64,000 bases of DNA from NCBI GenBank assembly GCA_028534125.1, contig CM052839.1, forward strand, positions 45,756,001 through 45,820,000, written 5' to 3'. Below, piece after piece: positions 14,201 through 59,405 of the stretch. Every line of letters begins with the position of its first letter. Position 1 is the stretch's first letter. The notes beneath the pieces were generated by a model. It searched no databases. It saw only the letters and a list, made by a program, of their open reading frames with translations, and had not been told where the DNA came from. The position numbers were made by a program, and so were the translations under genes. The DNA comes from Lama glama. Its lineage: Eukaryota.

Positions 14201-14780
14201 CCACCCCCCGCGCGGCGGGTCGCCGAGCCGGGCCTCTCCGGGGCCAGCGCCTCCGAGGCTCGACGGGAGCCCTCTCCCCGGGGCGAGCACCGCTGAGGCC
14301 AGCAAGGAGGGTCCAGCGCAGAGACTCCGTGCGTCTGGGCGGAAACAGGGAGGCGGTGGTGCGACCCCACTGGCGACAAGACGGCCCGCGGCCCCGGGGC
14401 CACCGGCAGGGGCGCGCCGGTCGCGCGGGCGGCTGCGGACCTTACCCGGCGGGGCTGCCGTCGTTGCAGGTCACCGACGTGTTGAGCAGGAGGTGCAGAC
14501 GCAGGTCCTCGTTGAGCTGCTGCGCTGAGCAGGGGTACAGGGACTGCGCCAGGCTCTTGACCTGCGCCATGAAGCTGTCCATGTTGCCCTCCACGGCCGT
14601 GAAGTCCAGCGGGAAGCTCTCCACCGGCTGTCCGGCCGCCGGCGCCGCCTCGGCCCGGGGCGGAGGCGGCGGCGGCGGGGGCTGCTGCTGGCCACGGCGC
14701 CGCCAGGTCTTCCTGCCCTCGCCGCCCCCGGCCCAGTGCAGCAGGCCCAGCAGCAGCAGCACGCGCACCCCTCGGCCCAT
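8292..14780 (-). CDS. NOTUM: Palmitoleoyl-protein carboxylesterase NOTUM (secreted Wnt deacylase), 11 coding exons, 500 aa
   Basis: Exons (-): 14780-14446, 13315-13263, 13182-13087, 12599-12539, 12292-12234, 11840-11738, 11095-10904, 10758-10658, 10135-9988, 8871-8824, 8598-8292; total 1503 nt, all GT-AG. Signal peptide [27 protein letters not shown], oxyanion loop LEGGWYC, nucleophile GSSAG, catalytic D (LFDEAQ) and H (CLSHEII). Confidence 0.98.
9085..9328 (-). mobile_element. tRNA-derived SINE (camelid-type) with duplicated 3' tail segment, NOTUM intron 9
   Basis: GGGATTGAACCCAGGACCTCC...CACTGAGCTATGCCCTCCCCC; the tail motif GGGGGA(G/A)G(T/C)AATTAGGTTT occurs twice (~9150 and ~9213). Confidence 0.85.
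9335..9870 (-). mobile_element. Old L1 3'-end fragment (L1MC-like), copy B, NOTUM intron 9
   Basis: AGTTTTAGGTTCACATCAAAGTGG...TTTGTTACAACC...GGGTTCACTCTGGGTGTTG matches the recalled L1MC 3' end. Confidence 0.7.
12330..12530. repeat. Degenerate minisatellite built on CCCCAGGAAGGAC-like units, NOTUM intron 4
   Basis: AGGAAGGA/AGGAC motifs recur about ten times and fill most of the 246-nt intron. Confidence 0.65.
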
Positions 14781-27269: not shown

Positions 27270-28060
27270 GGCCTCACTCCACCCCTCTGGACCACAGCGG
27301 GTAGGAAGGGGGACAGCGGGGCCAGGACGGGCCGGCAGGGACAGGGAGCCGAGGACTCGGCGCGCTCATGGCCCGCACGGCCGGTCGGCACCCAGGGCCA
27401 CATGCCCGGCTGGGGAGACCCCGCCCGGCGGGTGTCGGACTCCAGCTTCCCCGCCCTGCGAAAGCACCGGGGGCGTGGCCGGGAGGGGGCGTGGCCGGGC
27501 AGGGAGGGCCCGGAAGCGTGCGCTGGCCCCGCCCAGTCCCCGCCCCGCGGCCGCGTGGCTGTGCGTCCGGCTGTTGCAGATAAAGTTGTTTGACGCCGGG
27601 CCGGTGGGTCACGTGAACGGAAGATGGCGGCCCCGGCAGGCGGCGGGGGCTCCGCGGTGTCGGTGCTGGCTCCGAACGGGCGGCGGCACACCGTGAAGGT
27701 GACGCCGAGCACCGTGCTGCTGCAGGTGCGGCCGCAGGCGGGCGGCGGGTGCGGACGGGGCGGCGGGGACGCGGCGCGGGCCGCTCCTGCGGTTGCTCCG
27801 GGGGCCTGCGGGGCGGGGCCGGGCGGACCTGCGGGGCGGGTCCTGCGGCGGCCAATGAGCGGCCTCCTGGCGCGGCGGGCCCGCCCACTTCCGCGCCGGG
27901 CGCGGGGCTCCGGGTCCCTGCGGGGAGGGGGCAGGCGTGCCGCCCCAAGAGGCTGGCGGGGATCGCGCTCCCTGCCACCGCCACCCGATTCCGCGGCCCA
28001 GCCTCCAGGGGCGCCCTCCCGCCCGGGGCGCTGTGGCCGGGTGTGCTGAGTCACTCGCTG
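27270..28060. promoter_or_regulatory. CpG island / ASPSCR1 promoter with GC boxes, ETS (CCGGAAG), E-box GTCACGTGA and a YY1 motif (AAGATGGCGGC) overlapping the ATG
   Basis: CpG-dense region around exon 1; motifs at ~27510 and 27608-27631. Confidence 0.85.
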
Positions 28061-31000
28061 CACTGCACCCGGCAGCTGGCCTACGTCATTGAAAATGCTC
28101 ATTGGGCCCAGCTGTGTAGGGGACGGTGCGCACACTAGGTGGGGCGGGGGTGCTGAGCCGATGTAGAATAGCTCAGTGCGTGCAGGGCCCGGAAGGGGGG
28201 AGGTCCTGCCTTGGAGGGCTCCCCAGGGCTCAGTGGGGCTGGCTTTCTGAAAGTGGGGAGGGGACCTCCTGGGGTGTGTGGGAAGATAGTTTGTGGCCTT
28301 GGGAAGGTGTGGAGGGTCCCGCCGAGCTGGGATGACAAGACAGGTCCATGAGGAGGACCAGCGTGAGCAGGATTTGCAGGGGAGGCGTGTGAAGCTTTTG
28401 CGTGGGTAGTCAGTCTCGTGGCTTGTACTAGGCTTTGTCCGGCAGAGCCAACCAGCTTTCCAGGAGGCGGACTCTGTGCCTTCAGCTGCTTCAGTGCCAC
28501 TTGACTGCCCCGCCGCACTGGTGGGGGGAGGTGACCAGGCTAGACCAGTGGCTCATGCCCTCATCTCACCCCCAGGTCCTGGAGGACACGTGCCGGCGGC
28601 AGGACTTCAACCCCAACGAATATGACCTGAAGTGAGTGTGCTCTGGGTGGCTACAGGGTCCAAGTCCATCCCCTCCTCCCCCAGGGTCCCGCTGGGGCTT
28701 AAACCAACACAAGTTTATTCTCTCACCATCTGGAGCCCAGAAGCCCCCTACGAAGGTGTTGGCAGGGCCACACTCCCTCCAGAGTTCAGGGGCAGGACCA
28801 TGTCTTGTCCCTTCCAACTTCTGGGGGCCCAGGCCTCCATGGGCTTATGGTCACCTCCTTCCTGTCTCTGCCTCCCTGCTCCCTGTGTATTGTCTTTCTC
28901 CTCTTCCGTCCCTTGTAAGGACATTTGTCTTTGGATTTAAGGCCTACCAGATAATCCAGGGTGACCTCACCTCGAGATCCTTTATCACATTTTCAAAGGC
29001 CTTGTTTCCAAATGAAGTCACGTTCGTGAGTCCTGGGGTCTAGGATGTGGATGTATGTTTTTGGGGGCCACCATTCCACCCACTGCCAGTGGGTTTTCGA
29101 GCATTAGGTTGTGTAAGTTCCTGGTGGGGCTCTGAGGGCATGAGGCTGTGGTCACAGAAATGGGAAGAAACTTGCAAACTGTAGGTGGTTCTGATGGCCT
29201 TACAGCCCCTGGAGTTGTAGTTTAGCAGTATGTCCTTCAAGGTGTGGCTGTCCTCCCAAGGCAGGAGGGCCTACTCTGTTAGGCCCGCCCGTGCTGCCTC
29301 TTCTGTGGGGCTCTCCAGAGTGGGGTCCTGAGTGAACGTGCCCTCACGTCATCCAGGATCCCTGCCTTATGGCTAGCCACTGAGAATCCCAGGGCCATGT
29401 TGGGCCGTCCCCCTGGGGCCCTGTCACAGAGCCGCACACCCTCTCTGCTTTCCCTGAATCTACCTGAGGCCTCTGCATGGTGTCTGATGGGAGTTAGTCG
29501 GAATGTTGAGTCTCTTTCACACACGTATCAGTTTTTCTACTATCTCCCTTTTATCCGCTGACCGTGTAATTTGTTTAAAAAGCCACGGCCACTGCTGAGG
29601 AAGGCAGTTCCTCGCACATGTGTATGTGCGCTTGTGCACGAGACCCCTTCCTGTCGCCTCTAGAGCTTCCCAGCCCACTGCCGTCAGGGTCTCCTTAGGT
29701 CTGCTGTTCTGTCTTGCACTCAGCGTTGAAGTTGTTGAAGATGGGTATCAAAGTTGTTCGTTTCCCAGGTCTTCCAGACGCCCCAGGCTTCATGAACTGT
29801 TCTGCTCAGAAAACCGGTGTTTGCACAGGCACCTTGGCATTCATGCAGTCCAGTGACCACTTTGTGTGTGTTCAGATCTCACATTCTCTCGCCAATACTG
29901 TAGTTTTTTCCCTCAACTTCAGTAAAAATAGAGCTCAGAGCCTGACTTTTGAGAGGTGTGAATAAGTTCTTTTATTCACTCTCCTGGTGATTCATTCTGG
30001 CCACTGTCTGTCTCATCCAAAGTGGAGGCCACACGGCAGTAGTGTCTTCTGCTGGGGGCGGGAGCTTTTCTCAGACTCAAGTGATGTGAGGGTTAACAGT
30101 GGTGGTTCTCATTCCTGTAGGGTTCCTGGGAGCTAAGGGGGTCGTGAGGAGAGGGCCCAGGGTCAGGCAGGCTCTAGCTGCCTGGCCGCCACCCTCCCTG
30201 CCCACGGGCGTGGGTCTGGGTCCGGGTCTCCGAGGCCCCCATGCTCTCCTCTCTTTCCTCTTTCCCAAAGAGGTGTCAGACTCCTTGTCTGTCCACAGAC
30301 GAGATGTGATCTGAGCTGGACATTAGGAGCTGCACATGGTCCCAGCGCTGCCTTTGGTTGGCCAGGGCCACCTGTCGGCACTTCTCATCTAAGTTTCCTG
30401 TTCGTGACACGTGCTGACCATGATCCTGGCCTCACTTCCCAGGAGGGCAAGCTGCCAGTAGAGACAGCAGGGGTCTTGAGGTCCCTGGATTCTCCACCCG
30501 CCCTCTTCTCCTGGCCTGGGTTATTCCCCTTCCTGACTCACCAGTTCACTTTGCTCCCCCCACTTCCTCCCAGGATACTGTCCCGCCGTGGACCCAGGAG
30601 CTCTGTGCGTGAGGATCAGAAGAGGCTGCAGGCCGGTGTGGGCCTCTTCCTCATCCATTGGAAGCTTAAAGCTGCCAGGTCCCCACGCGGCAGCTGATAC
30701 CTGCGGGACAGGGACACAGAGACTGATGGGCTGCTCCAGGCTGGGAGGCCCTGGCTTTGCGACTCTTGGCTGCCATGAGGGCCTGGCTCTTCGTAGGGAC
30801 TTCAGACTGGCTCATTTCATGTGTGGTTCTCTGGCACCTTTGCCATCTGTCACTGGTCTTTGGGGACCAGTTACAGGGAGAGTGATCACCGTGGCTGGAC
30901 TGCTTCAACCACAGGGCATTGTTCTATTAGGAATTTTCTGGGTCTGTCTTCGGGCTGGTCACTGCTCCCCAGGGTGGAGGAGCAGGCCCTTGGCTTGCCC

Positions 31001-34000
31001 AGGGGTGACTTGCCCGTGTTCCTTCCATTCTTGCTTGAGCTGTCAGCGCTCACTCTCTTTCCTTCCAGAGACCCTGTGCTGGGGTTGGGGACCTGCTGTT
31101 TCTGTGCGCCGGCCCTCACTGCCTGTTTCCTGCTCCTGGCTGGGCTGCATGGGGACTGGACAGGGGCGTGTTTGGGTCTGCAGGCAGCCCAAGGCTCTGG
31201 TCTGTTTTTCAGGTTTCAGAGAAATGTGCTTGACCTCTCTCTCCAGTGGAGATTTGCCAACCTGCCTAATAACGCCAAGCTGGAGATGGTGCCCATCTCC
31301 CGGAGCCGCGAGGGGCCCGAGACCATGGTAGGTGGCGCTCAGGCAGGGGCCGGCCATACTGCTTCTCCCGGCTCCCTCGTTCAGGCTGGACTGCAGGGTG
31401 CTCGGCAGGCCCGGCAGAGGGGCAGGGCATGCCTGCTGCTGGAAGAGCACCCTGCAAGCCAGGCACCCATCCTCAGGGGGAGGTTGCCTTCTATCGGTCA
31501 AGCCGGGGCCACTTTTCTGCTTTGAAAACTGATGATTGGAGATGAGATTTTTCATTCCTTATGCTGAATGTTTTTGGAGTGGTGGGGTGATTAATTGTGC
31601 TGTGTCTGTCTCACCGCGCTGGCAGCATTCACCATGTGACCTGGTGTCTCTGGTCATAAAACCATCAAGAATCTTAGATCCCGCAGGGCTCTGTGAGGTG
31701 TCCAGCACAGCCTCAGTTGTGGGACGGGGAAACAGCTGGCACAGGCCTCTGTGGACAGGTTTTGGCTAGACCGCAGCCCAAGTCTTCCAACTGCAGCCCA
31801 CTGCCTTCGACCAAATCAGTAACTTTTAGGTCCCAGAGATTCAGTGAGTGACGGTTGGGTCACTGTGGATGGAGACTGTAATCACGTTAGCTGCCCTCTT
31901 GTGCCTACATGAGTCCTTTACACGCAAAGCCATGTGTTCTCCCAGCACAGCAGGGAAGTGGTTTTCCTCCCTGTCTAGAGACGAGGAGTCTGGGGCCCGG
32001 GGGCAATGTCCGCTCTCCAGAGCGCGCTGGGAGTCAGCGGCGGGGGCTGAGCCTAGTACCCCTCTTTTTCCATGGCAGCTGTGGTTCTCAGCCTTTCATG
32101 TAGAAGGAACCCTGACTTCCCTTGGGGATTCCTTGGGGTGTGATTAGGAAACCCCCTCGCACTTTCCCACGAGCAGGTCCTCCTTTGTTTGTTACTGGGA
32201 TTTCACATAAATAGTTGTGCCCCTGAAGAAGAGTCCCTGGGCCAGAAAGGCAGGAGTAGCGACAACCTAGAAAGGCAAGCGTTCGACCCGGGGTCAGAGC
32301 GGCTGGGCAGGGGCCTGTGGGCGCGGTCATGGGCGAGGCCGTGGCCCGTGGGTGGGGCGGGCGGGCGGGACCATGGCCTGTGGGCGGGGCCGTGGGCTGG
32401 GTGGGGCCGTGGCCGGCGGGGTGGGGCCGGCGGGGCGGGCGGGCCAGCCGAGCCGGCCGAGGCCCAGCCCCGTGCTCCAGTTTGCTTGCCCGTGCTGCTC
32501 TGCGTGTGTCTCACTAGGCAGAGAGACAGGAGAGCACTTCCCCCCTTTTGGGTTATAGACTCGTGTCTTAATTTAGGGAGACAGTTGTTAAAGATGGACT
32601 AGAAAGCAGCGTCGTCATTTGTGAGAAGAATTCAGCGAACACAGCATGTTAGTTGTCTGTCATGTAACGAATTACTCCAAAACTTGGCCCCTTGAGACAC
32701 AACAGCAAACAGACGTTTGCAGGTTTGGCAGAGCGTGTGCGGAGGAGCGGCACGTACCCTGGTGTTGGCTCCCACGTGCCCGTGAGGCCCCCGGAGCCCC
32801 GGAGATGGGGCATGCCCTCCGCCGGCCCCATGAGGATCAGACCCAGCCCAGTGGGACCCGCTGCTCTCCCTAACTGGGTTCCACGTCTCCCCCGCAGGTG
32901 CGTATAGCTCTGCAGCTGGATGATGGCTCCAGGTTGCAAGATACTTTCTGTTCAGGCCAGACGCTCTGGGAGCTTCTCAGCCATTTTGCACAGATCAGGT
33001 AAGTGTCAGAGGGTAGGTTCCAGGCTCTGCCACCCTCTGTGGCAGGGATGCAGCCACGATCAGCGGGACTGGTCTCGACCACAAGCCCGAGCTGTGCCTG
33101 TGCCGGAGGCTGTGCCGCTGGGCTTTGTGGCCCTGGTAAGAGAACTGGTGTGGGGAGACGGGCCGTTGTTCATCAGCTGTAGCAGCAGGTGCTGGTTGCC
33201 AGTGGCCTGTCTTTCTTGCTGGGTTTCCTGTGTGACAGCTGGTCATAGTTCTCCTGGACGAGCTTGCCAGCTTCTATCTGGTGATTAATGGCTTAAACTT
33301 TGCTCCTCAGTGTGTCGAAACGGTAGTCTTTCAAGCTTTGGTTTTTCACTGTGGGACGAAAGTGTGTCTGCTTTTAAAGATCTTTGCCAACAGCGTGGAA
33401 GGGACCGTGGGAGAGTGTACTGGTTGCTGTGTGGCCGTGGGCAAGTTGCTTGCCCTCTCTGGGCCTCCGAGGGGTGATGTGAAGATGAGATGAGCTAATG
33501 TGTCTCAAGTGCTGGTGTCAGGGCCTGGCGCATGGTTTGTCTCTGTGGAAGGGGGGGCTCTGGGCAGGGCCCCCGGTGATGGGGCCTCACTGTAGGAAAG
33601 CCTGCTCCGGCCTGGTTGATCTGACCGTGGCGCCCACAGCCAGATTCCTGCTCGCTGGCCCACGCCGCCCGGATGGGCTCCTCTGCCCACCTCGTGTGCT
33701 GGTGGCCCCTCTTGCCCAGCTCCTCCTGTGATGAGACCCAGGGGTCCCTCCTTGCTCCTCCGACCCTCGGCCAGCCTCTGCCCTCCCGGCCACTCTCCTG
33801 AGAGAGCTCCCCGCCCCCACTAGGGTGACCCCACCCGCTGCCGCCGAGATGAGCACACAGGCCGCCACTTGCCTGTGCTGTCCTTGGCGCCTGCCGCCAG
33901 CTGGGCGGTCGGGCTGCTGGTGCCCTTGTTTCAGCCGAGGGGATGGAGACCCGGAGGAGCGCGGGCTCCTCGGAGACCGGGGCCCGGGTGCCAGCACTGG

Positions 34001-37000
34001 CCTTCTTAGCTGTTGTGCTGCCGAGGCGGTGGGGTCTCTGCCTCCGTTTCTCCTGCATTCTTTCACTTACTCAGCGCGGGCCGGGCTGGGTCTACAGCAG
34101 GGAGCTGGGTGCTCGTCTCCCAGAAGTGACAGGCAGGTGTACAGAGCAGTCAGATTTCACAGGGAAGGCAAAACGCCGTGGGGGGGGGAGGTCTTGGAGG
34201 AGCCAGATGCACCAGGCGCAGGGAAGGAGCCATCTGGGTCCAGGGGCAGCAAGTGCAAAGGCCTGGGGGCAGCAAGGAGGAGTGGGAGGAACGCTTGGAA
34301 GCCAGCGTGTGATTCTTCTCCATCCCAGAAAGCTTCTAAAATGACCTCAGGGGACCGTGCAGAGACACAGCCTGGAAGACGGACAGAGTGAGCACGGAGC
34401 TGAGGCAGTGATGGCACAGGACGTGGGGGGGGGCCAGGGCAGGTGCTCGATGAGATGGGGTCCTGGATCCCCTCCCACTCCACGCTGCTGGTGCCAGAGG
34501 TGGATCCCTGGGCAGGGTAGGCTCTCTGGACTGGGGTTGCCTGCACGGCTGGGGCTGTGAGCCCTGTCCCGAGAACAGGGGTCAGGTGAGCCTGAGCCCC
34601 CCCATGTGGCTCCCGGAGCACCGGCAGCTCCCGATGGTGGGCCTGGGTGGCTCCCCAGGTCCCCACCCAGAAAATGACAGGCAGCTGCACTGCGGCCAGG
34701 GCCCCAGGTGTAAACGAGAGCCACAGCCAAGTGTGCCCAGTTGTCTGAGCAAGACGACTACTGTGAGAGGCCAGCACGGACAGCCAGGAAGAGATGGCCA
34801 CTGTTGGGATGGGTGGTGGCGTTTGGTCCTGTTCTCCCAGGAGGGAGAAGCTGTTGGAACTGGGGCTGGGTGCCGTGGAAAGGGAATGCTCAGTGACAAG
34901 AAAGGGTGCTTGGGACGTAAAGGAGAGCCGCAGTGGGAGGTGCAGTGGTCAGCGCCAGCCACCCGTGACGAGGTGCTGCGGAGCTGCTCGTGTGCCCAAG
35001 GGTCAGCCGGCCTGGCTGATCTGCAGTGGTGGCAGACGCCTGAGGGCATGTGGGGCCACGAGACGCTTGGACCTGGGGCGCAGGGTCCCTGCCGTCTTGG
35101 CTGAGGTGCCTCCTGGGGAGCAGCTGCAGAGCCAAGCGGCCCACCACTCAGAGGGAGGCCGGAGGAGGGGGAGCCGGAAGGCCAGGATGTGGCTCCTGCT
35201 GCTGCGTCTCTGGAAAGAGAACAGAGGGGCACAAGAGGAAACGGGAGACGGTAAACAGTCCTGGAACTGAAGGTGTGTGTTTCCAGGGTGACGGCCTCCT
35301 GTGCCTGGACCAGTGGGACGCCTCTGGAGCTCGGCTCGAGGGCTGATTCCACAGGCCTCGGGCTCCCTGTGGCCCCACCAGCAAGGTGGCCGAGCGGTGC
35401 CTTCAGCATGCCGCAGGAAATTGACCTGTTCTAGAATTCTCTGTTTTGCCAGATTACTGAGGGGTGAGGGTGGAACAAAGCCATCTTTGGACTCGGAAGG
35501 TCGTGTGTGTACCGTATGTACCCTCCAAGTTAGCTGCTAGGTCTGCTCCGTCGCAGGGCAGCTGGGCGGATCCACCTGGGAGGAGCAGACGTGGGGCACG
35601 GGGAGCGGAGGGGGCCCCTTGGGGCAGCAGACGTTGGACGCAGGTGCCTCTGGGGCCCTCTGCTCAGGCTGTTCCCACCAAAATGAGGAGTGGCCCGGGG
35701 CAGCAAGGCCGGTGGCTCCTCAGCTGCCCGCACAGGGGAGCCTGGGTCACCGTGCGGTCACGATGGCCGAAGTTCCCCTGGCTCTCAGGCCACTGGCCAG
35801 GCGGCCGGGGCCTGCCTCTGGGGAGGGCACCAAGGTTCTGGGAACGCTGGTTCACACGAGCCTCTCAGGACTGGCTGACTTGGTAAGCTGGGCTTAAGAT
35901 GTAAGGAATAGGACGGGTTGGGGGTGGCGGGGCAGTGGCAGAAGAGCAGGGTGACAACAGGAGGAGGCAGGCCCTGGGGGTGATCATGTGGGGGGGTGTC
36001 CTCCACCCTCTCTTCTGCTGTGACTCCATCTTGTCTTCCTGGACACTCCTGCGGCCTTGTTTCCTGTTATGTGTGCTGCCTGCCCACTGATGTCAGGCAG
36101 CTGGTCATTTCTCTGCTGTCACTCTAGAGGCGGCATTGCTGGACCTGCAGACCAGGACTTGCCTGGGCGTCATCTCCAGGAGCACGGATCCAGGCCTTTT
36201 CTTGGAAGCTGGTGTTTGAAGTAGGGTTCAGATGAGCAAGGGTGGGTGGCGTCTTCGGCCCCCACGTCGTGGCCAGATACCAGATGAGCTGGTGAGGCTG
36301 CGCTGCGGCCGAGCAGGAGTGCAGTCAGCCGCCCACCACTGCGGGGCCCTGCCAACGTGGGGCGGCCCCCTGACACCTGGGGACTGGCAGCTCTGGGAAG
36401 CCCAAGTCTTGGGGTCCCCACAGTGGGATGGGCGGGAAGCTGGTTTTTCTCACAGGAAGCTTCCAGGAGGAGGTAAGTGTCTGAGAGCTGCTGGTGTGCC
36501 GGGCGTGGCCGGGAGCCGTAGTGGGTGAGCACAGGTCCACTCTTGGTCAGGCGGCGGCTCCTTTGCCTGGGGATCAGGGTGGATGGTGCCCAGCTCTGAC
36601 CCCAGCATCTGGAGCAACTAATTGTCCAGTGTTTGGGCCACGTGGGCCACATGTGCGGACACAGAGGTGATTCAGAGTGTTCTGGCAGCCACAGCAAAGG
36701 AAAGTGAAAGCAGGCGCAGTTAATCTCAGGAACACAGTTAACTCAGCCCGGCGTGTCCCAGGTGCCGCTCTCTGTGCACGCGGCCAGCGGGGGAGGAGGT
36801 GTTCCATGTTGTTGTTGGTAGGAGCTCTCACACTTGGAGCCGGCCTCCCCCGTGCCGGCTCTGGGCATGCTTCGTGCCCACGTGGGCCGGTACCCGCCGT
36901 AGATAACACTGGCCTCGAGTGGGCTGGCCAGTCTCACCTCTGCTTCTTGGGCATCTCTGCAGGGAAGGCTCCTGGTGTCACGGCCCAAGCCCAGGAGGTG

Positions 37001-40000
37001 GCCTCTCTGCGGGGGTGAAGAACACAGCAGCCGCAGCCCCCGCCCCACCCGGCCCCTGGCCCGGCCACAGGCACAGGTTTGCTGGCCTTAGAGGGAACAA
37101 GACCCCACCAATCACCCCCGGCACCGTCTTCCAGGCCAAGTGGCGCCCCGTGGCTCTGCCCGGGCAGGGGTGTGGGAGCAGGTCCAGGGTCCAGGGGTCC
37201 CGGGAGCCCTGCTGAGCTCCCTTGGAGACCCGCAGACCTTCAGCAAGACCTACTGGGGGAGGGGCGGCTCTCCTCCCTCACGCCCTGGAACGCCCAGGTC
37301 CCTGATCTTGCGCGTGGATGGGAGAGGCTGCTAATCGGCCGAGAAGGTCTGGAAGCGATCGCGGCCACTCCTCCCCTCGGCGTGTTTACAGGCCTCTCCT
37401 CAGATCCCACACTCGGGAACCTGATCCCCCTGGAGGAGCCGACATCAAAGCCGCGGCTGTTTGATGTCCAAGGCCTCTGAGGGCGGCAGGCAAGCAGGCC
37501 TTCCCGGGCGCTGCCGTGCGTTATCCCTGTTTATGATTTGTGGTCCCCCGTGTCACCATCGGGTGCCCTGGGCAGGGATCTCTGGTGAGGACTCCTGGCC
37601 GGAGACCCTGAGAGCAGAGGGGACCCCGCTTGTCCCGTGATGGGCGGTCAGCCCGCTTTCTGAGCCCAGGTGTTTGTCTCTGTCGCCCTTGGGAGAAAGG
37701 GGACCCCCACGTCTCCCCACCTCCTTCCCCCTCCTGGTCCTGCGACCCTGTTTGCTGGAGCGCACCTCCCTCGCTCCTTCTCTGTATTGGCCTCAGGACA
37801 AAGAGCGCGCAGGCCCAGCTGGGGTCGTCTCCCTGGTGCTTCGGAGTCTCGGGTTTTCTTGAGGCCGGGGGTTGCTGGGGCTTGGTGGGCCAGTTCCCCC
37901 GCCGTTTGGGTCATGACCTGGCCCTGCCGCGTGTGCAGGGCCACACCTACCATGGCTGCCCTGCGTTGCTCGTTGTCCTGGTTGAGGGCCGGAAGCCTTC
38001 CCTGGGGAGCAGCTTCTTGGTAAAGCACAGGCTTGGGGAGAGCGTGGGCCGATCTCCTCCCGGGGCCCCTGCAGCAGGCTCTGGGCTGTGTGTCCTCGCC
38101 CAGGGAAACACACAGAAGCAAAAACTGAAAGTGAATGAGAGAGACAGGTGGCGAAAGGAGCTGAGCCCACACGGAGTGTGCGGTCACCAGTGTTTGGAGC
38201 GTCCGTGTGCAGTCACAGCCAGCCACTCTCCCCCGTCCTGGCGGGGTGTGTCCGTGTGAGCCCTGGGGCCTGGGGCGTCAATCTGGGCGCCAGTTCTGTA
38301 GTTCTGTGTCAGGAGATGTAGGACTCAACTTTACTTGGTTGTCACAGGCCTGCTGCCAGCCATTTAACCATCCTGAGTCAGGGCTCGGCCACGCGGTGCC
38401 CCATAACCTCGAGGGCCAGCGCAGGTCGGTGCGCGGTGGGGATGGCTGTCCCGTGGGTGTGGGTGACATTGTGTGCCCGCTCACCCGCATCCTCAAGCCT
38501 GTCCACCTGTCCTTCCCGGTGCCCTTCCCTCCCATCTTAAGCTCTGGTTTACAGGGGAGGACGTTGGTGGCGGTGTCCACCCCTCCGCTGCCCCATTTGT
38601 CTTGGTGTCACCCCCAAGCCCCCCTCAGAGTCCACATAGTGGGTTCGTGCCAAGTGCTACTGCTGCTTCTCAGGGTCCCTGGGAGGTTTTCACTGCCAAC
38701 CCCAAGCACAGTTGACAGTGACCCGAGGCTTGTGCCCCTGCTCTGTGTCCTTCTTGTGCTCTGGGCCTGGAGGCAGGTGGGAGACACCCCCAGGCCACTT
38801 GCTGACGGCCAGCCATGGGGGCAGTCAGGGCGGGCAGTTTTCCACGGTGACTGGCTGGGTACCGTCCAGAGGGCCCCCGTGCCCCCCGGCAGCAGCCACC
38901 TGTGGCGCTTTCTCTTCTGTCCTTGCAGGGAGTGTCTGGAGCAGCCGTGTGAGGCCAGCCCAGTCTGCGTGTACATGAGGGGTGAGGTAGGTGAGCTGCC
39001 GGCCCGCCCGCCTGGCCCGCGCCCCGCCGCCCACTCCCTGTCTCCACGCAGGCCCAGCCCCACTTTCCAATTGGAAAATTCACTCCCTCAGACCTGCCTT
39101 CAAACCAGCGACAGGGAGACTTGGGCTCTGAAAGCGTGATGTGTTTCATGGAAAAAAGGCACGACGCCGGCTCCACTGGAACCGACCGCGGGCCGCCCGG
39201 GCTGCTCCCAAACCTCCCTCAGAGCCCTGTTTGTTTTCTCAGCTTCTCCCAAAGCCCAGGAGTCACAAAAGTGGTTTCATTTTAATAAATATTTGCTTTG
39301 CTCTGTGTTTTGATCTTTTTCAAAACGAGTGCGGCGTGGTGCAGGCTTGGCCTGGCACTGAGGCCCTGCTGTCCCCGCCTGCCCGCCCATGACGGGGACC
39401 CTCCTGGCACTTGGTCCCCTGGCTCACAGGGGCTTTTTGTTTTCACCCTGGCCAAGCGCCCTCTCCTGGCCGGGGGTGGCCGCCATCCCCGAGGGCCCCG
39501 CGATGTGGACGAGACACGCCCACCTCTTTATCCCAGTTGGAGATTCCTGACCCAGGGCTGAGAAGGGCAGGTATTTTAGGGCTGTGAGTGGGAGGCGTCT
39601 GGGGCACGAGCCCTCCCTCCGCTGGAGGAGACAGACCACTGGGCCTCGGGCATCTGGGCCTGGATTGGGGCCATCGTGGTCAGTCCCAGCGCTCAGAGGG
39701 CTGGTCCGCGGGCCAGATTTGGCTCACCTGGCCCGAGCTCTGCCTGCCAAGCCCTCACATGGGGTGGGGTGGGGGGACCGATGCGGGCCAGCTGACAAAC
39801 ACGTGGGTGTAGATTAGGGTGCAGGGGCTGGACCCACGCCTTCAGGGGACCCTGCGGTACCCATGACACAGTGCCCGGCCGGAGGCAGGTGGCGCGTGGT
39901 GGGCTTGGCAGGCGGAGGGCGCTTAGGGAGGGGTCAGCAGGATGTCCTTCCCTCCCAACAGGTGACTGGCAGGGCTGCCCTGCAGAGCACAACACTGCAG

Positions 40001-43000
40001 TCGCTGGGCCTCACCGGGGGCAGTGCCATCATCAGGTGGGGGCATCTGAGTCTGGTTTGGTAAAGAGAGCTGGGGTCTCTGAGGACAGGGAATAGCAAAC
40101 ATGGGAACGCCCAGCTGCCCTGCCCAGTGGCTTCTCCCGCCAGCAGCCTGGGAGGCTGGGCGCCGTGGGGCGTGGTGTGTCCGGTCAGGGGTCTGCTGGC
40201 TGCAGGGTGGACAGGGCTGCATGGGGGCCCGTATGTGCTCCTGTCCCCAGGAGCGGTGGACGGGATGGGGCCGTGGGGAGTCGAGCATCCACGGGACTGG
40301 ATTTGGTGTGGCCATCACCAGAGGGCACAACGCTGGAGTCCGGGGGCAGGGGCTGAGTGTGGAGTTTCTCTTGCTCTCTGGGCCTCCCCCTGCAGGTTTG
40401 CCATGAAGCGATGTGACTCTGCTGGCAAGCAGGAGCCTGGGCCCTCCTGGAGCAAAAGCCCGGGAAGCCTGATGCCATCCACAGAGGCCGAGCAGGCCGC
40501 CAGCGGCCCTCGGCTTCCTTTGAATACAGCCGGGCTCAGCCAGGGCGATGTGAGCCATCAGGACGAGACAGCCAGCCTGGGGGCCGGCCTCACAGACGCT
40601 CAGACAGAGCAGATCCTGAAGGAGCCCTCACCTGCCCCTTTTGTTCCTTTCTCGGGTGGAGGACAGCGGCTGGGGGGCCCCTCCGGGTCCGCAAGGCCTC
40701 TCATGTCATCTTCAGCCAAATTGCCAAAGTCCTTCTCCAGCCCTGCGGGCCCCTCCAAGCCGAAGAAGTCAAGGCCTGGCCAGGAGCCCCAGCCGGAGCC
40801 GGAGCCGGAGCCGGTAAGGGCGTGCTGGGCGCCGGGGTCCTTTGTCTGTGGCCTGACCTCCGGCCGGTCAGCCTGGGGTACAGCAGGGTTGCTGGGCGCG
40901 TTGTCATCGTCTCTGGGGAGCGCTCTTGGGGTTTTGTTCGGTCTGAGATCAGCTTCGTTGAGTCATCATTTTAGAAATGCAGGTGGGTAGGTTTTGGCAA
41001 ACCTGTGTGTCCCCATAGCCACGTCACAGCCGGAGAACCTGCCTCCTGGCACTGCCACTTTCTGCCTGGGCTGCTGGCTTTGGCTGGCTTTTGACGTGAA
41101 GGAGGTTTGGCTTTGACTGTCCCACACCACGCTTACCCCTGAGCCGGGCATCCCCCCAGCTCCCCCGCTGTCTGCGCCACCAGCCCGTGGGCGTGTGGGG
41201 CGCTCCCTGAACAGGCGGGAGAGGGCGAGTTTGCTCCCCCTTCACAGGCGTTGTGGGTGGGGCCTTGGGCGTCTCCGGCAGGGACTGGGGCGTGGAAGCG
41301 CCTGGCCACCCTGAGCCGCAGCTGGGAGGAGGGCTGCAGCTCTCCCTGAGCTGGGATGAACTGGCCTGGGCCCTGGGCTGCCACTTTGACGTCTTCTCTG
41401 TGTGGTTAGCTCTGTTGAGGTATAACTTACTGTGTAGACACCACCACCAGTTTTGCAGTGTTGGGCAGGTTTTGCCAGCAGCACGTTGTCTTCGATGCTG
41501 AGTCTGTCCTTGAGTGCCTCGGGCTCCAGCCGTCCCTGTCCCACCCCCTCCCCCATAGTGATGCCCACCCCTGTCCACTGCTCTGACCGCAACAGACATG
41601 AGCGATGGAAGGCGTCCTGCAATTTGGGTCACATTGAACAGGCAGTGACGGGTCAGGGAGTGGCCCCTCGAGCAAGGGCCCCCCCCCAGGTGGGCGACAC
41701 TTCTGCAGGTGGCTCTTGGCATCGCACCAGTGTCTTCCACCCCTCCATCTGATGGTGCCGGTCTGGTGGGTCAGGCTGCCCTGGCCCGTTGCAGCCCTGT
41801 TGGAGCATCTAAGCTAGGGGACAGGCCTGAGCCCCTGTGGGGTGTTTTCCAGCTGGATGCTGGTGCAGGACCTTCTTCAGTAGGGCTGTCACAAGTCATA
41901 CGACTGAGCTTCCACTGCCTTCTGGGGTCCCTCCATGTGACTGCTCACTGCACAGTGCTCACAGACCCTGCTGCCAGTAGAGGCATGTGGATTCCCCAGC
42001 ACTGGGCTGCCCACCTCCTGGGCTTGGCCCCTGAGGAGGCTCCGGGGGCTGGAAGGCTGTGGGCTTGTTGCTTCACTGGTTCCAGCAGTGCTTGGCTTCA
42101 CTTGGAGTCTCTGCAAGTCATGTCAGTTTTGTTTTTTGTCTTGATGCTCTTCCTTCTCTCAAGTGTTTTCTTGTCATGTCGCAGTGGCTGGGCCTCTGGT
42201 GTCTGTTGACTGGCAGCCAGTTCAGTGGGCGTCCCTGCTTGACCTTGACCATGACGTTGGAGGCAGTAGTTTACCTGAAGGATGATGTGTGCTGTGGAAA
42301 AGCCTTTATCAAGTCAGGAGTTCCTATTCCCACCGTCCTGAGAATTTTTCTTTATTGTAAGCGGGCTATAAAGCTTTATGAGCTGTTTTTCCCACGTCGA
42401 GATGACCCCATGTCTTCTTCCTCCTTCAGTTTGTTTGTGTGGTGAGGTCCTGGGTCGGTTTCCCCCATAAAGCCGTCCTTGCCTTCCAGGTATCCGTCCC
42501 GTTTCAGTGATGGTGTTAGCAACACTGCTGGTTGTGGTTAACTAACGTTTTAGTTCTGGAGCTCGCCGCCTGCATCCTGTCTCCTCTGGGGCCTCCTCCT
42601 CACTCTTGCCTCCAGGTCACACCCCTGGGGATGGGGGAGGGTTGGGCACCTGTGCCTGCAGGGCCTAGTTGGGGGGGGGCTTGGCCGTGGGACAGAGCCT
42701 GGATCCCTGCCAAGGGGCAGGCGCCGGGACCACTCCTGTTCCCTGAGCCCCCCTTTGTGTGTTCTTGCTGAATGGACAGGGGAGGGGTGGGGGACCCAGG
42801 CAGTCCCCCTGACAGGTGTGCATCCTGGGGAGGTGGCAATGGTAGTGCTCTGGCCCTCTGGGGACCCAGTAGCTTCTACGCTGGTGTATGGACCCCATTA
42901 GAAACAGCATGAAGTCCCCTGTCTCACAGCCTGGACCCTGAGATCAGCCATCAGAAGCGAACACTTGTGGTTGGGGCCTGACTCCCACCGGACCTGCTCT

Positions 43001-46000
43001 CTCTGGAGGCCCCAGGGTTTGGGGGCCAGAAATCTGGTGCCAGGGCTAGCTGTCACTTTCTCCCACCCTGAAGGCTGCAGGTCTCTGTGTCTCTTGGGAA
43101 CCTGCTGGTGTCTGGGGGGCTGGTGCTGGCCCGGGATGTGGTTGCTGTCCAGGGGCAGTGTCCCAGTGCCTCCCCGAGCACTGACCCCAGGGGCTCCAAG
43201 AAGGAGGGGTCCCGGGGACAGTCCGCCTGGCTGCCAGCAGTGCGTGTCTTTGATCTGGGAGCCCCAGCAGCTGGTTGATTGTGGAGCGTCCCCCGCCCGC
43301 CTGCCTCACGCCTCCTGTCACTGACAGCCGCACACCCGGGGGCCCGGCCAGCCACATGGTGTCTGCTTTGTGTCCCCTTAAGTCCTGGGGGAGGGGAGAA
43401 GGGAACAAAACAGAACTTTTGGGGGAACTTCAAAGGTACACTTTAGTAATCAAAAAGAGTTTCCAAGTTCCCCATTAATGTTTTGCCTGTGTGTGGTTTT
43501 GGATTTGAATAGAGAGTCAGAAGAGACAGGATAAAATGCAGGCAGGTCCTCGGCTGAGGCCCGGGATGGTTTACAGACCCGGGCGGCTACCGCCTTTGAT
43601 CTCAGAACGTTAATTATTAGAAGGTAGTTTTACTGGCCGTCAGAGCCGGGTGCGGGGAGAGGCTGGGCTGCCCAGCGGCCCCTGGCCTGTCCTTTGAAGT
43701 CCTCCCGCTGGCCCCGGAGGCCGCCCCGCAGCCCTTTGTGCTGCCGGTGTGATCCCAGCAGGCGTCCCCCCACGCAGCTGGCACAGGGGTCTGTGATCAA
43801 AGGCCCCGACCCCCTGGGCAAGGCGGGCGCTGACAGCGGTCCCCCCCCTTCACCTTCCAGGGGGTGGTCTCGTCTGCTGGAGACGCGGCCCCAGGGTCTC
43901 GCCCGGCACTTTGCACCCTGCCTCAGGCAGGTGTCAGCCTTGCCTCCTGCTCCCTGCTTTACTTACAGGCAGGTTTAGAACACGGGGCTGGGAGGAGCCT
44001 GGCCAGAGCCTGGGGTGCCTGTCTGTGACGTGCCCCTCAAGGGCACCCCCGCTTCCCCCCATGTGTGGCCCCAGGTCACAGTGCGGGCCTGGCCCTGCCC
44101 TGTGGGTGGATGCCCCCTGGGTGCCGGTGGCGGCCCAGGGGCCCAACTGTCCTGAGAAGAACAGTGTTGGCTTCAATTGGAATGCCCGCCGAGGTTTGCT
44201 GGCAGACGGGTCCTTGGCTTTGAAGGTCCCGGCCAAGTCTTGAGGCAGTTTTTAAAGCCCAGTGACAGGCAGGTTCCCCTCCAGCTGTCTCTGTCCTGCC
44301 GGGTCTCAGTCACGATGACTCGGGGAGAGATGGGTGTTGAGCCTGCGAGCCACAGTGGACGGTGGGTGCGTGGGCACCCGGGCCCCCCTGGTTTGCATTA
44401 CCCGGTCCAGATCAGCGCACAGAGCTCCCTGTTGGGATTGCTCCTGGCCCTTTGGTCCACGGTGTGCGTCCACCCCCTGCGGCTCACGGACCTGAGTGCC
44501 CAGTTTCCCTGGGCTCCCTGGGGGCAGCTGCCAGGTGTGCGGGTGAGGAGAGCCTCCCCCATCGTGCCCCGTGTCTGCTCCTTCAGTCCTTTGGGGGTTT
44601 GTGGACCTTGTGCCCGGACACGTGCACCCGGCCACACCAGGCGCCTGGGAGCAGCCCCGCTTCAGACGGTACCCGCGTGCCACCCTGGCCCAGCCTTTCC
44701 AGCTCCGGAAAGCTCTCCCCTCGTTTCTTCTGCTCGAGGAGGGGCGGGCCCGGGGGTGGACGCCAGCCCAGGGCGGGCGGGCCAGGCGCTCGGGTTCAGG
44801 GTGCAGGGCTGTCCGGTCAGTCAGCCTCGTGCTGGCTCGGCGCTCCTTCCAGAGGGCGGCTGGCTCTGGGAGTGACAGAGGTTTGGCCCGCGTCCCTGGA
44901 GTAGTGATTCATTTAAGCTCCAAGCCTCAAGGGAAAAGGCTTCATGTTCCCTGTTACCAAAAACCATTGTCAGAGGAGAGTCTGGGCTGAGAGGGAGGCC
45001 TGTGGGCCGGCGGGAGGAAGACAAGCGCCCTCACGAGGAAGCTGGAAGATCTGGGGTTGAGGTCACCTCCACATATTTTTCACATTTTTTCTCCGTGTGT
45101 CATCATGTCCTGGAAAATTACCGTCAAGAAGATGAAACCGCAGCAGCAGGGAGGCCGCTTCTGACATGAGGGGACCCCGTGTGCCCAAGCGGGTCGCCGC
45201 TGGAGCACGTCCTCTGGCTGTCCCCTCCGGGCCTGGCCCTGCCCATGCCTGGGGCCACACTGACCTCCGTAGGGCAGAGGGCAGGCAGTGCGTCACACCT
45301 CCCTCCCCGGGGTCTCCCTTGAAGGGTCTTCCTGGTGCGGCGGGGCTCCTCTGAGGCATCAGTCACCAGGTCCCCACATCTCAGCGGCCCTGGGCCTCTG
45401 GACACCCCCCGCAGAGGGTGCCCCTGTCCCTCCCAAGCGCCCTCTGGGCCCCTCGTGGGTGTCAGCCCAGCAGTCTGACCCATCCCACTCTGTCTGGTTT
45501 TCTGGGTATCCTCTTCTCCGTAAGACCCTCGCGGGAAGCTGGCACCTGGGAATCTTTGCCAGGGTTGTGTGCTTGCGGGAAAGAGAGCCCCTGCCAGGCT
45601 TTTCGCCAGAGGGGTCCGGTCCCTTGTGGCCCCCCCTCGGAGCCTGCAGACCAGCCCCTCCTCCCTGCAGGATGGCGTCCAGGCCTGTTCCCCCTCGTTG
45701 GACACGGTCACTTAGATGCCACTCCGTGGGCTGAGACCCTGGCTCCGGCTGCATCCTCACTATTCTGCCCCTTCTCTCGCGGATAGCAGCATCTGGGCCA
45801 CTGAGGGAGGGACGACTCCTCTGACTTTGCTGGGGTAAAGGATTGGGCGGGAAGACGCAGCTGGAGCTGTGTCTCTGGAATAGACAGCGCTCAGGAGCCC
45901 AGCCTTGAGCCAGTGAGGAGGGAAGCCCATGCGTTTGCTGGAATGTCCCAGGCCTGGTGATGTCGAGTTCTTGGTGGGGGCGCGTCCTCCACGGGGCTCC

Positions 46001-49000
46001 CTGGACACCTCTGGAAGAGCAGACCTGGAGATGCGGGCTATGAAGGCCAGCCGCTCCGCAATAGTCCCTGGGCACCAGCTGGGACATTCCTCTTGGAGCC
46101 CCGTCCTGGGCCCCGGGACTGGCCGCGGCCAGCGCACAGGAGCCCGCGCCCCGTGGTGAGGGTGGTGGTGGTGAGAGAACAGACGTGAATGACTGTTGCC
46201 GCCACATGGGTGTTTCTTTCTTAGTGACGTGTCATCCTAGACGTCTGTTCTCCGTTGACAAGCATCTCTGTAAACCCACCTAGGATGGGAGCCATGCGTG
46301 ATAACTGCCCGCGACCGGGGGAAGCGGGTGAGGCAATAGCGAATGGGGGCCAGGTGGCTGGCCAGGCGTCGGAAGTGAGCGGGGCCTGGGCTCGGCCTCC
46401 CCCGGCACAGCGTCTGCCCCACTCGCCCCACGCAGAGCTGCAGGCCCACCCCTCTTCTCTCTGCAGGGAAACGTCTCTGTTACGCGGGCCACGTGGAGGC
46501 GTGTAAAGCCCCGTGGCTTCTCCCTTTGACAGCTGGGTGACCGTCCTACCTGCCCAGCCACAGATGGCCATCTGTTCTTGTGGGACAGGGTCTGCCCAGG
46601 GCTGGACATGGTGGCAGCTCTAGGACTTGGGTGGTCTGGGCCCTGGTGGGCAGCAGAGGCTGCTCGGAACCCCGGCTTCTCTGCCCAGAAGCGGGGAGGC
46701 CCCTGGGGTGCAGAGCGGTGCAGGTGAGTGTGTGAGACTGCTTCTCAAGGCAGCCCCTTCAGCTCCGGGCTCCTCTGGAGCAGAGCAGCGGCCTGGAGGA
46801 GGGGTGGGATCGAGGTTGGAGCCAACACAGAGAGAGATTTTTGTCAGTTTATTTTCTGATGGGAAGTCAGTGGTCCCTGAGCAGCTTGAAGCTAATGGCT
46901 GTTGTCACCTGCATCCCTGTGCTGGAAGGGGCCTCGGGGAGCGGGCCGTGGGCTGGGGGTTGTGGGCAGTGCTAGCGGCCTGCAGTCCCCACGGTCACCA
47001 CGGGCTGTGCACTGGCAGCACCGGGATGGCGCGGAGGCCGGAGTGGCCTTCTCCTCTCAGGGACAGGCTTCACTGGCCGTGTCTGGATGGTCAGCCTCAG
47101 CTCCGTGCCCTGGAGCGCATGTCACCTGAGTGCTGGGTTCTCCAGGGGGCTTGTGTGTCCGGGACTGCCAGGGTGGGATGGGGACAGGGCGGCCCCAGAG
47201 CCCGCGCCTTGGCCTGTGGGCTTTGTGCCCCAGGGCCCGGGGCCTGGCACTCGTGGGCATGGCAGTGCCCTGCTCGGCACACCCGCGTCCGCCCTCGTCC
47301 TCCCCGAGGAGCCCAAGCGAGCACTCAGCCCCTCTGGAATGCAGGCGCCGTGGCTGTGGGGGGCAGCCTGGCGCCTGGCATCTTGTTATAAAAAGCTCTG
47401 GTGTGGACTGCCTGCGGGCTGCAGGAGGATTGTGGCTCTGAGGGGGCAGCCCCCAAGGGCCTCTGTCAGCCACCTTCGGGCCCCGCTGCGCGGGCCTCAG
47501 CCACCCCTTCCTGGCCACCCTGCCCCAGTGCCCTGAGATCAGAGGGGTGTCCTGGCGAGCGCCCGCCTCCCTCCATCGTGAGGTGTGGCGCAGCTGGTGG
47601 CCTGGATGGTGTGGCTGGGGGAGTGGCCCCGGGGACACCTGGCAGGTGCACTGGGGGAGTGAGCTCCTGACTGCCGGGCAGCTTTTGCCCTCGACCAGCA
47701 TGGGAGCCCTTTAGAACAGGTGGGGCTGCGGCCAGGCTGAGGAAAGGATGGTCAGAGAAGCCTGCTGAGCCGTCCCTGGGTGTCGAGAGGCGGGAGGCGG
47801 GATTTTCTTGCCGAGGCCGGGACGGGGCAGTGAGCAGAAGGCACCATGGCCTCACCCCAGAAGGCTCATGGACATTTTGTGGAGGGAGGACTGCCAGCCC
47901 TGCTGGACGCCTTGATCAGGCCTGGTCTCCCCGTGGTCGCGCGGGAGACACTCGCTGCAATTAGCCCCCCAGAGGCCCTGCAGGCCTGGCAAGCCTGCCT
48001 TGTAATTTCCATCCCCATTGCTGCCAATTAGGAGGGACGCCGTCCCTTCCTGTGTCCCCAGGGTGGTCAGAGGGTGGGGCCAGCCTGCTCCCCCAGGGAG
48101 GGGGTGGGTCAGCCTCGCCATGGGGCCAGCGGCTAGCAGGGTTCTGCCAAACCTCTAATTTGGGGGCTGTTGCTTCCCCGCCCCTCCCATGGAGCCCCTG
48201 ACGTGGCCTTGACCAGGGTGCTGCTCCCCAAGTTTGTCCCCTGCTTTGGGGGACCCTGATAGCGGGCAGCCCCCGGGGGCTCATGGGGGCCTCCCTCAGA
48301 GACAGGAAGTGAGCAGAGGTGCTGCCAAGGGAGGCTGGCCCTGCTGAGCTGCCGCCCACCCACTGCCCAATACCCCAGCCATGAGGGTGTCACGAGGTAC
48401 CTGCTGGCCCAGTCTAGCCGAGACCCCAGGACCACATGCCTTGCTGGTGGGTGAGGATCTCAGCATTGGTGTGGCTGAGCGGGCAGGCTCGGTGATCCCA
48501 CATCCCACCCTGGAGACCTGGCCCTGGCCCTGGGCCCATAGACGGGGCCAGCCGTGGCCTGGGCTCAGCCTGGGTCTGCATCAGCACCCCAGTCCCGTGG
48601 AGTAAGGGCCTGGGCCCGTCCTGGGCACCTGTGTCAGCCGAGCCCTCCGCCTGCCCAGCCAGTGGACCGAGACCCCGTGGTGTGCCACCCCGACCTGGAA
48701 GTGCTGCTCCAGGCCTGGCCCTCAGAGCTGCCTGACGAGTTCTTCGAGGTGACCGTGGACGACGTCAGGAGACGCTTGGCCCAGCTCAAGAGCGAGCGGT
48801 GGGTGCGCCTTGGCCCCCTCTGGAGGCTCCCTGCTGCCCAAGTCTGGGTCCCCAACACCCATGCCCTGGCAGCTCTGTGGAGGGGCGGAGCCCGGGCAGG
48901 GGCTCCCACCCGGCCTTGCGTGCTGGAACAGCTCTCGAAGTCCAGCTGGTGTGGGGCCTCCGCTGTGCCCGCACAGGCCTGGGCCTTCACCCCGCCCCTC

Positions 49001-54528: not shown

Positions 54529-55678
54529 GTCGCGAGCTTCTCTCGAGACCCTCCTGTCGTCCTTCCCTGGAGAGGGCTCTTTCGTCCTCCGCCCTGCTCC
54601 CACCTCCCAGCCACGAGCCTCCAGCCAACCCTGGGGCTGGATGGGCCACATCCTGGCCGGGCTGGGCCCTGGGCCTCCTCGCTGGGGCCTTGGTCTCTTA
54701 ATGGGCACAGGTGTTCTCCCTGAACCTTAGTTTTTACCTGACGTCATTAATTACGCACTGAGAACTCAGGAGAAGGACCTCCAGGCACGGCCTGCCTTGG
54801 CTGTGCCGCAGGCGGCAGGAGCCGGGAGGCTGCAGCCCCCACCCAGCAGGGCGGGGCTGGCCTGGGGTTTCCCGGTGCCCCGCCCGCCCCACATCTGAGT
54901 GCACTTCAAAGTGTCCGTGGGGCACGGGCTCTGGCACTGGTCGCCAGCCTCTCCCCTCAGGTCTAATTACTTCCACATGCACCCAGAGCTTTGAAGCCCC
55001 AAGACTCCCTGCCGGGAGCGGGGAGAGGAAGGTGGGGGGCAGAGGCGGGGAAGGGGTGCAGGGGAAGCCAGCAGGACTAAATTAGGGAGGGAGGGCTTGC
55101 CCCGCCAACCATGCCATCTTTGGGTGGGGACATGGCTCCTCAGGTGCCCGTGGCTGCAGGGAAGCCATTGTCCCTCCCCAGTAAACCAGGTCCTCTGACT
55201 CCGGGGTCGCTGGGCCCAGGGCCCTCTGGGTCCTCCTGGGCTCCAAGGAATCCAAGACTTTCAGAATTCACGGGAGGTGGATGCTGTGGCCTGCAGGTGG
55301 CCTGGCCAAGCAGGAGGAGGTCCCAGAGGGCAGCCAGGCTTTGCAGACCCAGCTTCTCGCAGGTCCCAGGCAGGTCCCAGGTAAGCGTGGCCGGGTCAAC
55401 CTGCCTGGCCCTGGAGTTGCCCCGGGCCAGCGGTCCTTCCCAGGGGTGTGACCCCCAGCAGCCCTGCCCACATGTTCCTGGGCCTGCCTGCCGGCCAGCA
55501 GTAACACCCCACGCCCACAGCCGCCCTGTGGCACAGGCACCATCCCGGGCGAGCAGCCACACGTGTGGGGCTCTGCGCGAGCGCCAGGCCCGTGCACGGC
55601 AGGATGCTCACACGTGAAGCAACTCGACTTGGGGTGATTAATGGCAACAGGAGGCTGTGCCTGGGGAGGTGGCTTTGA

Positions 55679-55684
55679 TTTATT
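55679..55684 (-). terminator. CENPX polyadenylation signal AATAAA
   Basis: TTTATT on + strand about 490 nt downstream of the CENPX stop. Confidence 0.65.
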
Positions 55685-56168
55685 GACGTTGCTTTGTGGG
55701 AACAAACTTAGAGTTCAGGGCAGCATCTTCTGGGAGGAACATCAAATGGCTTGAAGGTGACTTACGAACTTTGATGTCAGTGCAGAACCACGCACTTCCG
55801 TTTGTCTGCGGGGTACATACGGGCTAACTGCTTGGGCAACGGTCCCGCTCTTCCTGGCACCTGCTCCCCAAAGACCAAGTGCTTCTCAGCTGCCCCAGGA
55901 GGCGCAAGGGGAGGGCACCTGCCCAGGTTCCCCACTCAGGCCCCCATCCTGTCAGTGACCCCCCATCTGCTGTGTCCAGGCTGTCAGCAGCAGGGAGAGA
56001 GGACAATGGGGAAGGGCGGTGCACTTGCTGGGACCTGGCCAGTCTTCGGAGCTGGAGAACCTGGAGGATCAGCAGCTCCCGCCCCGTCTGAAGCCAGAAG
56101 CCATGGAGAACACGTGGACATGGGACTTGCTGGTGACTCGGACAGGCTGCCAGTGAGGGTGGACACCC

Positions 56169-59100: not shown

Positions 59101-59405
59101 CTACCAACGTTCTGCTACCCGGCCGCGAGACCCCATCCACGGAGGATGAAGGGCGCGCGCGGTGGGGGTCGTGGCCGGATCCTGGGGAAGGGCCCACCCT
59201 AGAAGGCACCGGCCGGCAGCGCGGGGGCTGGCTCGGAACCCGCACGTGGGTCACCCAGCCGGCGGGGCTGCGGAGTCCTCGCCAGACCCGCGCCAGCGCC
59301 GGTCCCCCGCCCTGCCCGGCGCCCCCAGCCCGCTCCCCTCGCCCGCTCCCCCCGGCCCCGCGGGCCCTCTCTCACTTTCCGGAAGCCCGCGCCGGTTTCC
59401 TCCAT
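56169..59405 (-). CDS. CENPX: Centromere protein X (MHF2/FAAP10/STRA13), histone-fold, 5 coding exons, 79 aa
   Basis: Exons (-): 59405-59376, 56935-56884, 56696-56643, 56366-56278, 56183-56169; 240 nt. Translation [79 protein letters not shown]. Confidence 0.97.

Follow-up and report, generated by a model that had tools for sequence, protein, structure and literature searches.

NOTUM, which is secreted and restrains Wnt signalling, is a drug target with roles in APC-mutant clones, in the ageing gut and in bone. The window, a stretch of 64,000 nucleotides of the Lama glama genome (assembly GCA_028534125.1, contig CM052839.1), carries within intron 7 of the neighbouring gene, ASPSCR1, a dense cluster of TCF/LEF sites (Table 1) that a preliminary description had proposed as a long-range Wnt-feedback enhancer of NOTUM. 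The conserved cluster, whose human counterpart is occupied by beta-catenin along with LEF1/TCF7L2, is probably a distal Wnt-responsive NOTUM enhancer. That it is a functional Wnt-responsive element is highly probable, and NOTUM is likely to be its real principal target.

Table 1. Positions of the gene features, TCF/LEF sites and accompanying words in the window
Feature	Position	Strand	Basis or human counterpart
ASPSCR1 coding exons 1-7 (host gene, possible co-target)	27624..40813	+	open 308-aa frame, GT-AG boundaries
ASPSCR1 intron 7, host intron of the cluster	40814..48658	+	exon boundaries
First coding exon of NOTUM, the likely target	14448..14780	-	matches PDB 4uyz NOTUM
TCF/LEF site 1	43248..43255	+	CTTTGATC; beyond the +/-250 bp human motif table
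TCF/LEF site 2	43428..43435	-	CTTCAAAG, which is CTTTGAAG on the minus strand; offset -261, just beyond the human motif table
TCF/LEF site 3	43594..43601	+	CTTTGATC; CTTTGATG in human, at offset -95 in peak 592
TCF/LEF site 4	43692..43699	+	CTTTGAAG; identical human 8-mer at +3
TCF/LEF site 5	43795..43802	-	GATCAAAG; identical human 8-mer at +124
Weak TCF/SOX-like word CCTTTGT	43733..43739	+	word present in the window
Outlying TCF/LEF site	44218..44225	+	CTTTGAAG; beyond the 500-bp human motif table
Helper-like GC word GGGCGGC (RCCGCC on the minus strand)	43581..43587	-	same offset in human, among the words listed
AT-rich core, GC 0.38, several TAAT words	43401..43500	.	base composition and word scan
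HNF1-like palindrome containing TAATTA (43611)	43609..43621	+	putative; resembles the HNF1 consensus

Gene setting of the cluster

The residue that heads the C-terminal ASPL fragment of known structure (PDB 5ifs/5ifw) marks the start of ASPSCR1 exon 8, at 48659, and exons 1-7 end at 40813; the two boundaries delimit intron 7. The NOTUM ATG lies at 14780 on the minus strand, 28,468 bp from the cluster, so that exon frame and distance bear out both the host intron and the separation of about 28.5 kb given in the preliminary description. The ASPSCR1 promoter is 15.6 kb from the element, and CENPX/LRRC45 lie 15.6 kb away on the opposite side, where their shared promoter stands at the same distance from the element as that of ASPSCR1. 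These two genes are arranged head to head 3' of ASPSCR1 (CENPX (STRA13)-like at 59405 on the minus strand, LRRC45-like at about 60079 on the plus strand), with names assigned by synteny; CENPX is also the nearest gene of peak 592, the human counterpart of the cluster.

Elsewhere in the window, two tRNA-derived SINE copies (23820-23930 and 60660-60745) stand in opposite orientations and resemble the camelid Vic-1 type. In intron 3 of ASPSCR1, GGGCCGTGG-like units form an imperfect repeat of very high GC content (32290-32480). Loose CTCF patterns give weak matches at 36991 and 39458, and a stricter pattern gives none.

Density and composition of the sites

Every word of the five-site cluster is present at its place; CTTTGAWS is fitted by all five sites and CCTTTGAWS by four of the five. 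Over 464 kb (the window with 200 kb on each side), the element is the sole stretch with at least five CTTTGWW sites per 560 bp; four such sites occur at two other places, and for CTTTGAW or CTTTGAWS there is no second place with four. The element matches its own 2.35-Gb assembly at one place. Dinucleotide shuffles of the element never matched the observed site count (0/5000). When the whole window was scanned after shuffling in 1-kb blocks, five CTTTGWW sites recurred in 5/300 shuffles and five CTTTGAWS sites in 0/300, and a model that scatters the 17 CTTTGAWS sites of the window uniformly assigns the cluster a P value of 1.5e-4; as the stricter classes were picked post hoc, with the sites already seen, the loose-motif P of about 0.017 is the cautious value. 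The cluster thus exceeds chance. The background of about 0.1 per 560 bp estimated in the preliminary description was too low for its own CTTTGWW class, for which the computed background is 0.23-0.37 (CTTTGAWS, 0.06-0.15). The window holds 17 CTTTGAWS sites in its 64 kb, compared with 33 in the 400 kb of flanking sequence, which makes them about three times as dense in the window (P=2.4e-4).

GC content is 0.59 over the element and rises at its 3' end to 0.72, with 7 CpG per 100 bp. Its earlier characterization as an AT-richer, repeat-free island holds in that no tandem repeats occur within the element, but the AT-rich part extends over only about 100 bp (43401-43500). RCCGCC helper words are present three times versus 1.1 expected per 600 bp, and RCCGCCR does not occur.

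The human counterpart is conserved and bound

Beta-catenin, LEF1 and TCF7L2 have been mapped by CUT&RUN in CTNNB1-driven hepatoblastoma organoids (PMC13273282), where a 'Wnt peak' requires beta-catenin plus one of LEF1 and TCF7L2, shared by two or more of the three lines. Peak 592 (hg38 chr17:81,999,750-82,001,900) stands in the 'Wnt Peaks Common' list of that source (Datasets S1 and S4) and is one of the 766 Wnt peaks shared by embryonal and fetal subtypes. It is annotated there to intron 6 of 14 of the ASPSCR1 transcript NR_045351, which would correspond to intron 7 of the coding isoform, with CENPX as the nearest gene.

Peak 592 has TCF motifs at -95 (+), +3 (+) and +124 (-), in the order and on the strands of window positions 43594, 43692 and 43795. 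Two of the 8-mers are identical in human and the window and the third, that of site 3, differs at its last base. The spacing between sites 3 and 4 is 98 bp in both, and that between sites 4 and 5 is 121 bp in human versus 103 bp in the window, that is, 18 bp more in human. Flanking GC-rich 4-mers are colinear for 29 of the 46 listed when two small shifts are allowed and for 20 of the 46 unshifted, by an eye count of words that overlap and are non-independent, with a chance per word of at most 0.018 (the frequency of the commonest 4-mer in the intron). All three TCF sites that fall within the human motif table are present in order, in a comparison with one species made through that table. Orthology of the window cluster with peak 592 is not in doubt, and both conservation and TCF/beta-catenin occupancy are found at this orthologue (PMC13273282). 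Whether the element had already been described in human, a question left open earlier, is answered by its listing in published data sets. Cluster and peak share what is probably the same ASPSCR1 intron, three motifs, their order and strands and the 98-bp spacing, and differ in distance, peak 592 lying 39.6 kb from the NOTUM TSS and the cluster 28.5 kb from the NOTUM ATG; in the available text and tables of PMC13273282, peak 592 is a table row with CENPX nearest and is not discussed.

Occupancy of the element does not appear universal and its dependence on helper words is doubtful, because the dnTCF1E peak file from DLD1 cells (PMC4267635) holds the -7 kb NOTUM peak and no peak at the human site (no row starting 7995). 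One helper word is conserved in place, and the C-clamp factor TCF1E is without a peak at the human site. No cell-type-unique TCF7L2 peak (Frietze 2012, PMC3491396) lies over hg19 79,957,621-79,959,771, an ambiguous absence in a list that covers unique peaks alone, and the gene names have no match in two Bottomly 2010 supplementary files (PMC2943592), which is uninformative.

Evidence linking the element to NOTUM

ELMER, in which each enhancer probe was tested against its 20 nearest genes in TCGA (PMC4460959), pairs NOTUM with cg10624462, 39,258 bp away, in colorectal cancer (Pe 1e-4), and with cg09925620, 38,510 bp away, in endometrial cancer (Pe 2e-4), these being two of the four NOTUM rows of the file. 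When hg19 positions are converted to hg38 by comparing where three tables place the NOTUM TSS, cg10624462 would map inside peak 592, at about window position 43310, its side of NOTUM being judged from its distance and from its rank of 6, which is that of the probe with a known coordinate; cg09925620 maps 53 bp past the peak edge. In both cancers, colorectal and endometrial, low methylation at the site accompanies high NOTUM, so that element activity tracks NOTUM expression. This is a correlation: any enhancer opened by Wnt would follow NOTUM, which reads out Wnt strongly (log2 tumour/normal 6.1). The ELMER pairs in the accessible part of PMC4460959 concern the same human interval and name NOTUM, and they are correlations without TCF motif analysis of the site.

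NOTUM falls on CTNNB1 knockdown in SW480 cells (-1.35/-1.16; PMC3961325). A 2016 study of mouse hepatocytes (PMC4790944) reported two major beta-catenin/TCF4 sites, one of them some 30 kb upstream of Notum's TSS. This site, for which the available text gives no functional test, resembles the present element as a distal beta-catenin/TCF4 site assigned to Notum at a similar distance and would lie inside Aspscr1. It may be this element or the counterpart of peak 591 (39.6 kb and 31.1 kb from NOTUM in human, respectively), equally good candidates since the available text of PMC4790944 gives no coordinates. In a literature search confined to openly accessible articles, no deletion, CRISPRi, reporter or loop test of the element was found, nor any paper naming or testing an enhancer of NOTUM within ASPSCR1; the eight listed papers that contain both gene names deal with other matters. 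Two SNPs associated with bone density (hg19 79,934,194 and 79,921,522) lie outside the element, and the 25-kb window of that study stops short of it.

Further TCF-bound modules and redundancy

Three Wnt peaks, 590, 591 and 592, are listed at the human locus in the accessible data sets of PMC13273282, with one TCF motif each in 590 and 591. Both lie closer to NOTUM than 592, peak 591 being 31.1 kb away in an earlier ASPSCR1 intron. HepG2-specific TCF7L2 peaks lie at hg19 79,951,351-79,954,200 and 79,956,151-450 (PMC3491396), and the human -7 kb NOTUM peak (hg19 79,925,943-79,926,194) contains 1 WRE and 4 helpers (PMC4267635). The intron-7 element might accordingly be bound and Wnt-responsive and yet redundant, with NOTUM run by a promoter site and by the -7 kb and earlier-intron modules. 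The three Wnt peaks and the HepG2-specific peaks are compatible with such redundancy, as is the enrichment of TCF words in the window, which persists when the cluster is left out (12 CTTTGAWS sites versus 33 in the flanks, P=0.017). However, peak 592 is the densest module, with three motifs within 500 bp versus one each for 590 and 591, the cluster is conserved in sequence and spacing, and the NOTUM-linked probes (2/4 rows) lie at its human counterpart; redundancy is in our view rather unlikely.

Single sites in the window may correspond to some of these modules. At 20955-20990, 6.2 kb from the NOTUM ATG, a TCF site on the minus strand is followed by two GC helper words; this site loosely resembles the human -7 kb peak (peak 590) and may correspond to it. 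Some 1 kb upstream of the ATG of NOTUM, a GC-rich island holds a strong TCF site, GATCAAAG, at 15758, which might be the equivalent of a promoter site described for both mouse and human (PMC4790944). Intron 4 of ASPSCR1 has a single CATCAAAG site at 37443, and peak 591 has an identical 8-mer; orthology of the two was dropped as unproven, the flanking words being out of register by eye. Downstream of the ASPSCR1 polyA signal (about 54524), the interval 54740-55780 contains CTTTGAWS at 54904, 54989 and 55769, CTTTGAT at 55673 and several TAAT/TAATTA words, and is a possible further module.

Response of ASPSCR1 and choice of target

In SW480 cells, ASPSCR1 itself falls on CTNNB1 knockdown (-0.87/-0.90; PMC3961325) and counts as one of 162 direct CTNNB1 targets, so the earlier proposal that the element skips the ASPSCR1 promoter is unsupported, and the notion of a housekeeping promoter inert to Wnt is contradicted by the same response, which may come through another module. 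ASPSCR1 is unchanged after 2 h of dnTCF1E (logFC 0.11; PMC4267635), and siTCF7L2 in MCF7 cells gives a slight, non-significant decrease. The ASPSCR1 peak of Watanabe et al. (PMC3961325) lies 25.5 kb from their NOTUM peak and fits an earlier intron, in a study that disregarded peaks beyond 20 kb, a rule that excludes intron 7.

It is conceivable that the main target is ASPSCR1 or CENPX/LRRC45, or an intragenic ASPSCR1 transcript start, and that the link to NOTUM reflects a shared Wnt state. The knockdown response of ASPSCR1 would accord with this, as would its listing with Wnt targets in hepatoblastoma (in a retracted paper) and the position of CENPX as the nearest human TSS to peak 592. Nevertheless, no ELMER pair joins cg10624462 or cg09925620 to ASPSCR1, both ASPSCR1 pairs (2/2) in the available part of PMC4460959 involving probes 227 and 912 kb off. 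Together with the placement of the Watanabe et al. peak in an earlier intron, tempered by the 20-kb rule, and with the flat response to dnTCF1E, this makes a principal target other than NOTUM unlikely.

Fusion with TFE3 retains ASPSCR1 residues 1-311 according to the available part of PMC10850509, and exons 1-7 encode 308 residues here, so that a break in intron 7 fits, in line with the earlier identification of this intron as the counterpart of the ASPSCR1-TFE3 breakpoint intron. Genomic breakpoint positions inside intron 7 were not found in the literature, and the accessible portions of PMC12254877, PMC11225592, PMC7761870 and PMC9894182 do not mention the ASPSCR1 intron. A further, quite unlikely proposal has NOTUM and the ASPSCR1 promoter sharing the intron-7 cluster as their Wnt enhancer, with the position of the TFE3 break deciding whether the rearranged chromosome keeps it. 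Were this true, the fusion oncogene would stay under Wnt control after breaks downstream of the cluster, and breaks upstream would sever NOTUM on that allele from its densest TCF module.

Lineage factors and chance

The TAATTA word noted in the preliminary description as homeodomain-type is present at 43611, but appears to belong to a putative HNF1-like site. The palindrome at 43609 resembles the HNF1 consensus and a word at 43798 that of HNF4; the 10-letter HNF1-like pattern is expected 0.01 times per 600 bp. These two words, and occupancy evidence that comes from liver-derived cells, would suit a liver or gut lineage enhancer built on HNF1 and on nuclear-receptor half sites overlapping the TCF words, in which TCF binding is secondary. 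Such an enhancer is nonetheless very unlikely to be the main explanation, given that the TCF 8-mer is fitted by all five words, that beta-catenin itself is bound in embryonal and fetal subtypes, and that the probe link is seen in endometrial cancer too. A chance cluster without function, for which the window-wide P of the loosest motif leaves some room, is scarcely credible in view of the shuffles with the stricter motif, the uniqueness of the cluster in 464 kb and its conservation and binding in human.

Proposed mechanism and implications

For the favoured reading of the cluster as a distal NOTUM enhancer, we propose that TCF/LEF occupies the clustered sites in intron 7 and that beta-catenin would turn the bound factor into an activator. 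From its place 28.5 kb from the NOTUM ATG in the window, or 39.6 kb from the TSS in human, the element would then contact the NOTUM promoter and raise expression of the secreted Wnt deacylase NOTUM, closing a negative feedback loop. It would act as one of at least three TCF-bound modules, alongside the -7 kb module and that of an earlier ASPSCR1 intron; ASPSCR1 would likely be co-activated, more weakly, instead of skipped. The putative HNF1-like site may bias the element to liver, gut or kidney epithelia.

The AXIN2 and NKD1 enhancers are backed by reporter or deletion evidence. The cluster shares with feedback enhancers of the AXIN2/NKD1 type the clustered CTTTGWWS words, beta-catenin occupancy and an adjacent negative-feedback gene (PMC4267635; available portions of PMC13273282), and unlike them it sits inside a neighbouring gene. 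The element is on record in two published supplementary tables and possibly in mouse too, and its class is textbook. In the literature found, the element that turns on NOTUM has not been pinned by function; taken jointly, the cluster in the camelid, the CUT&RUN peak in human and the link from methylation name a 600-bp interval as a candidate for the NOTUM switch.
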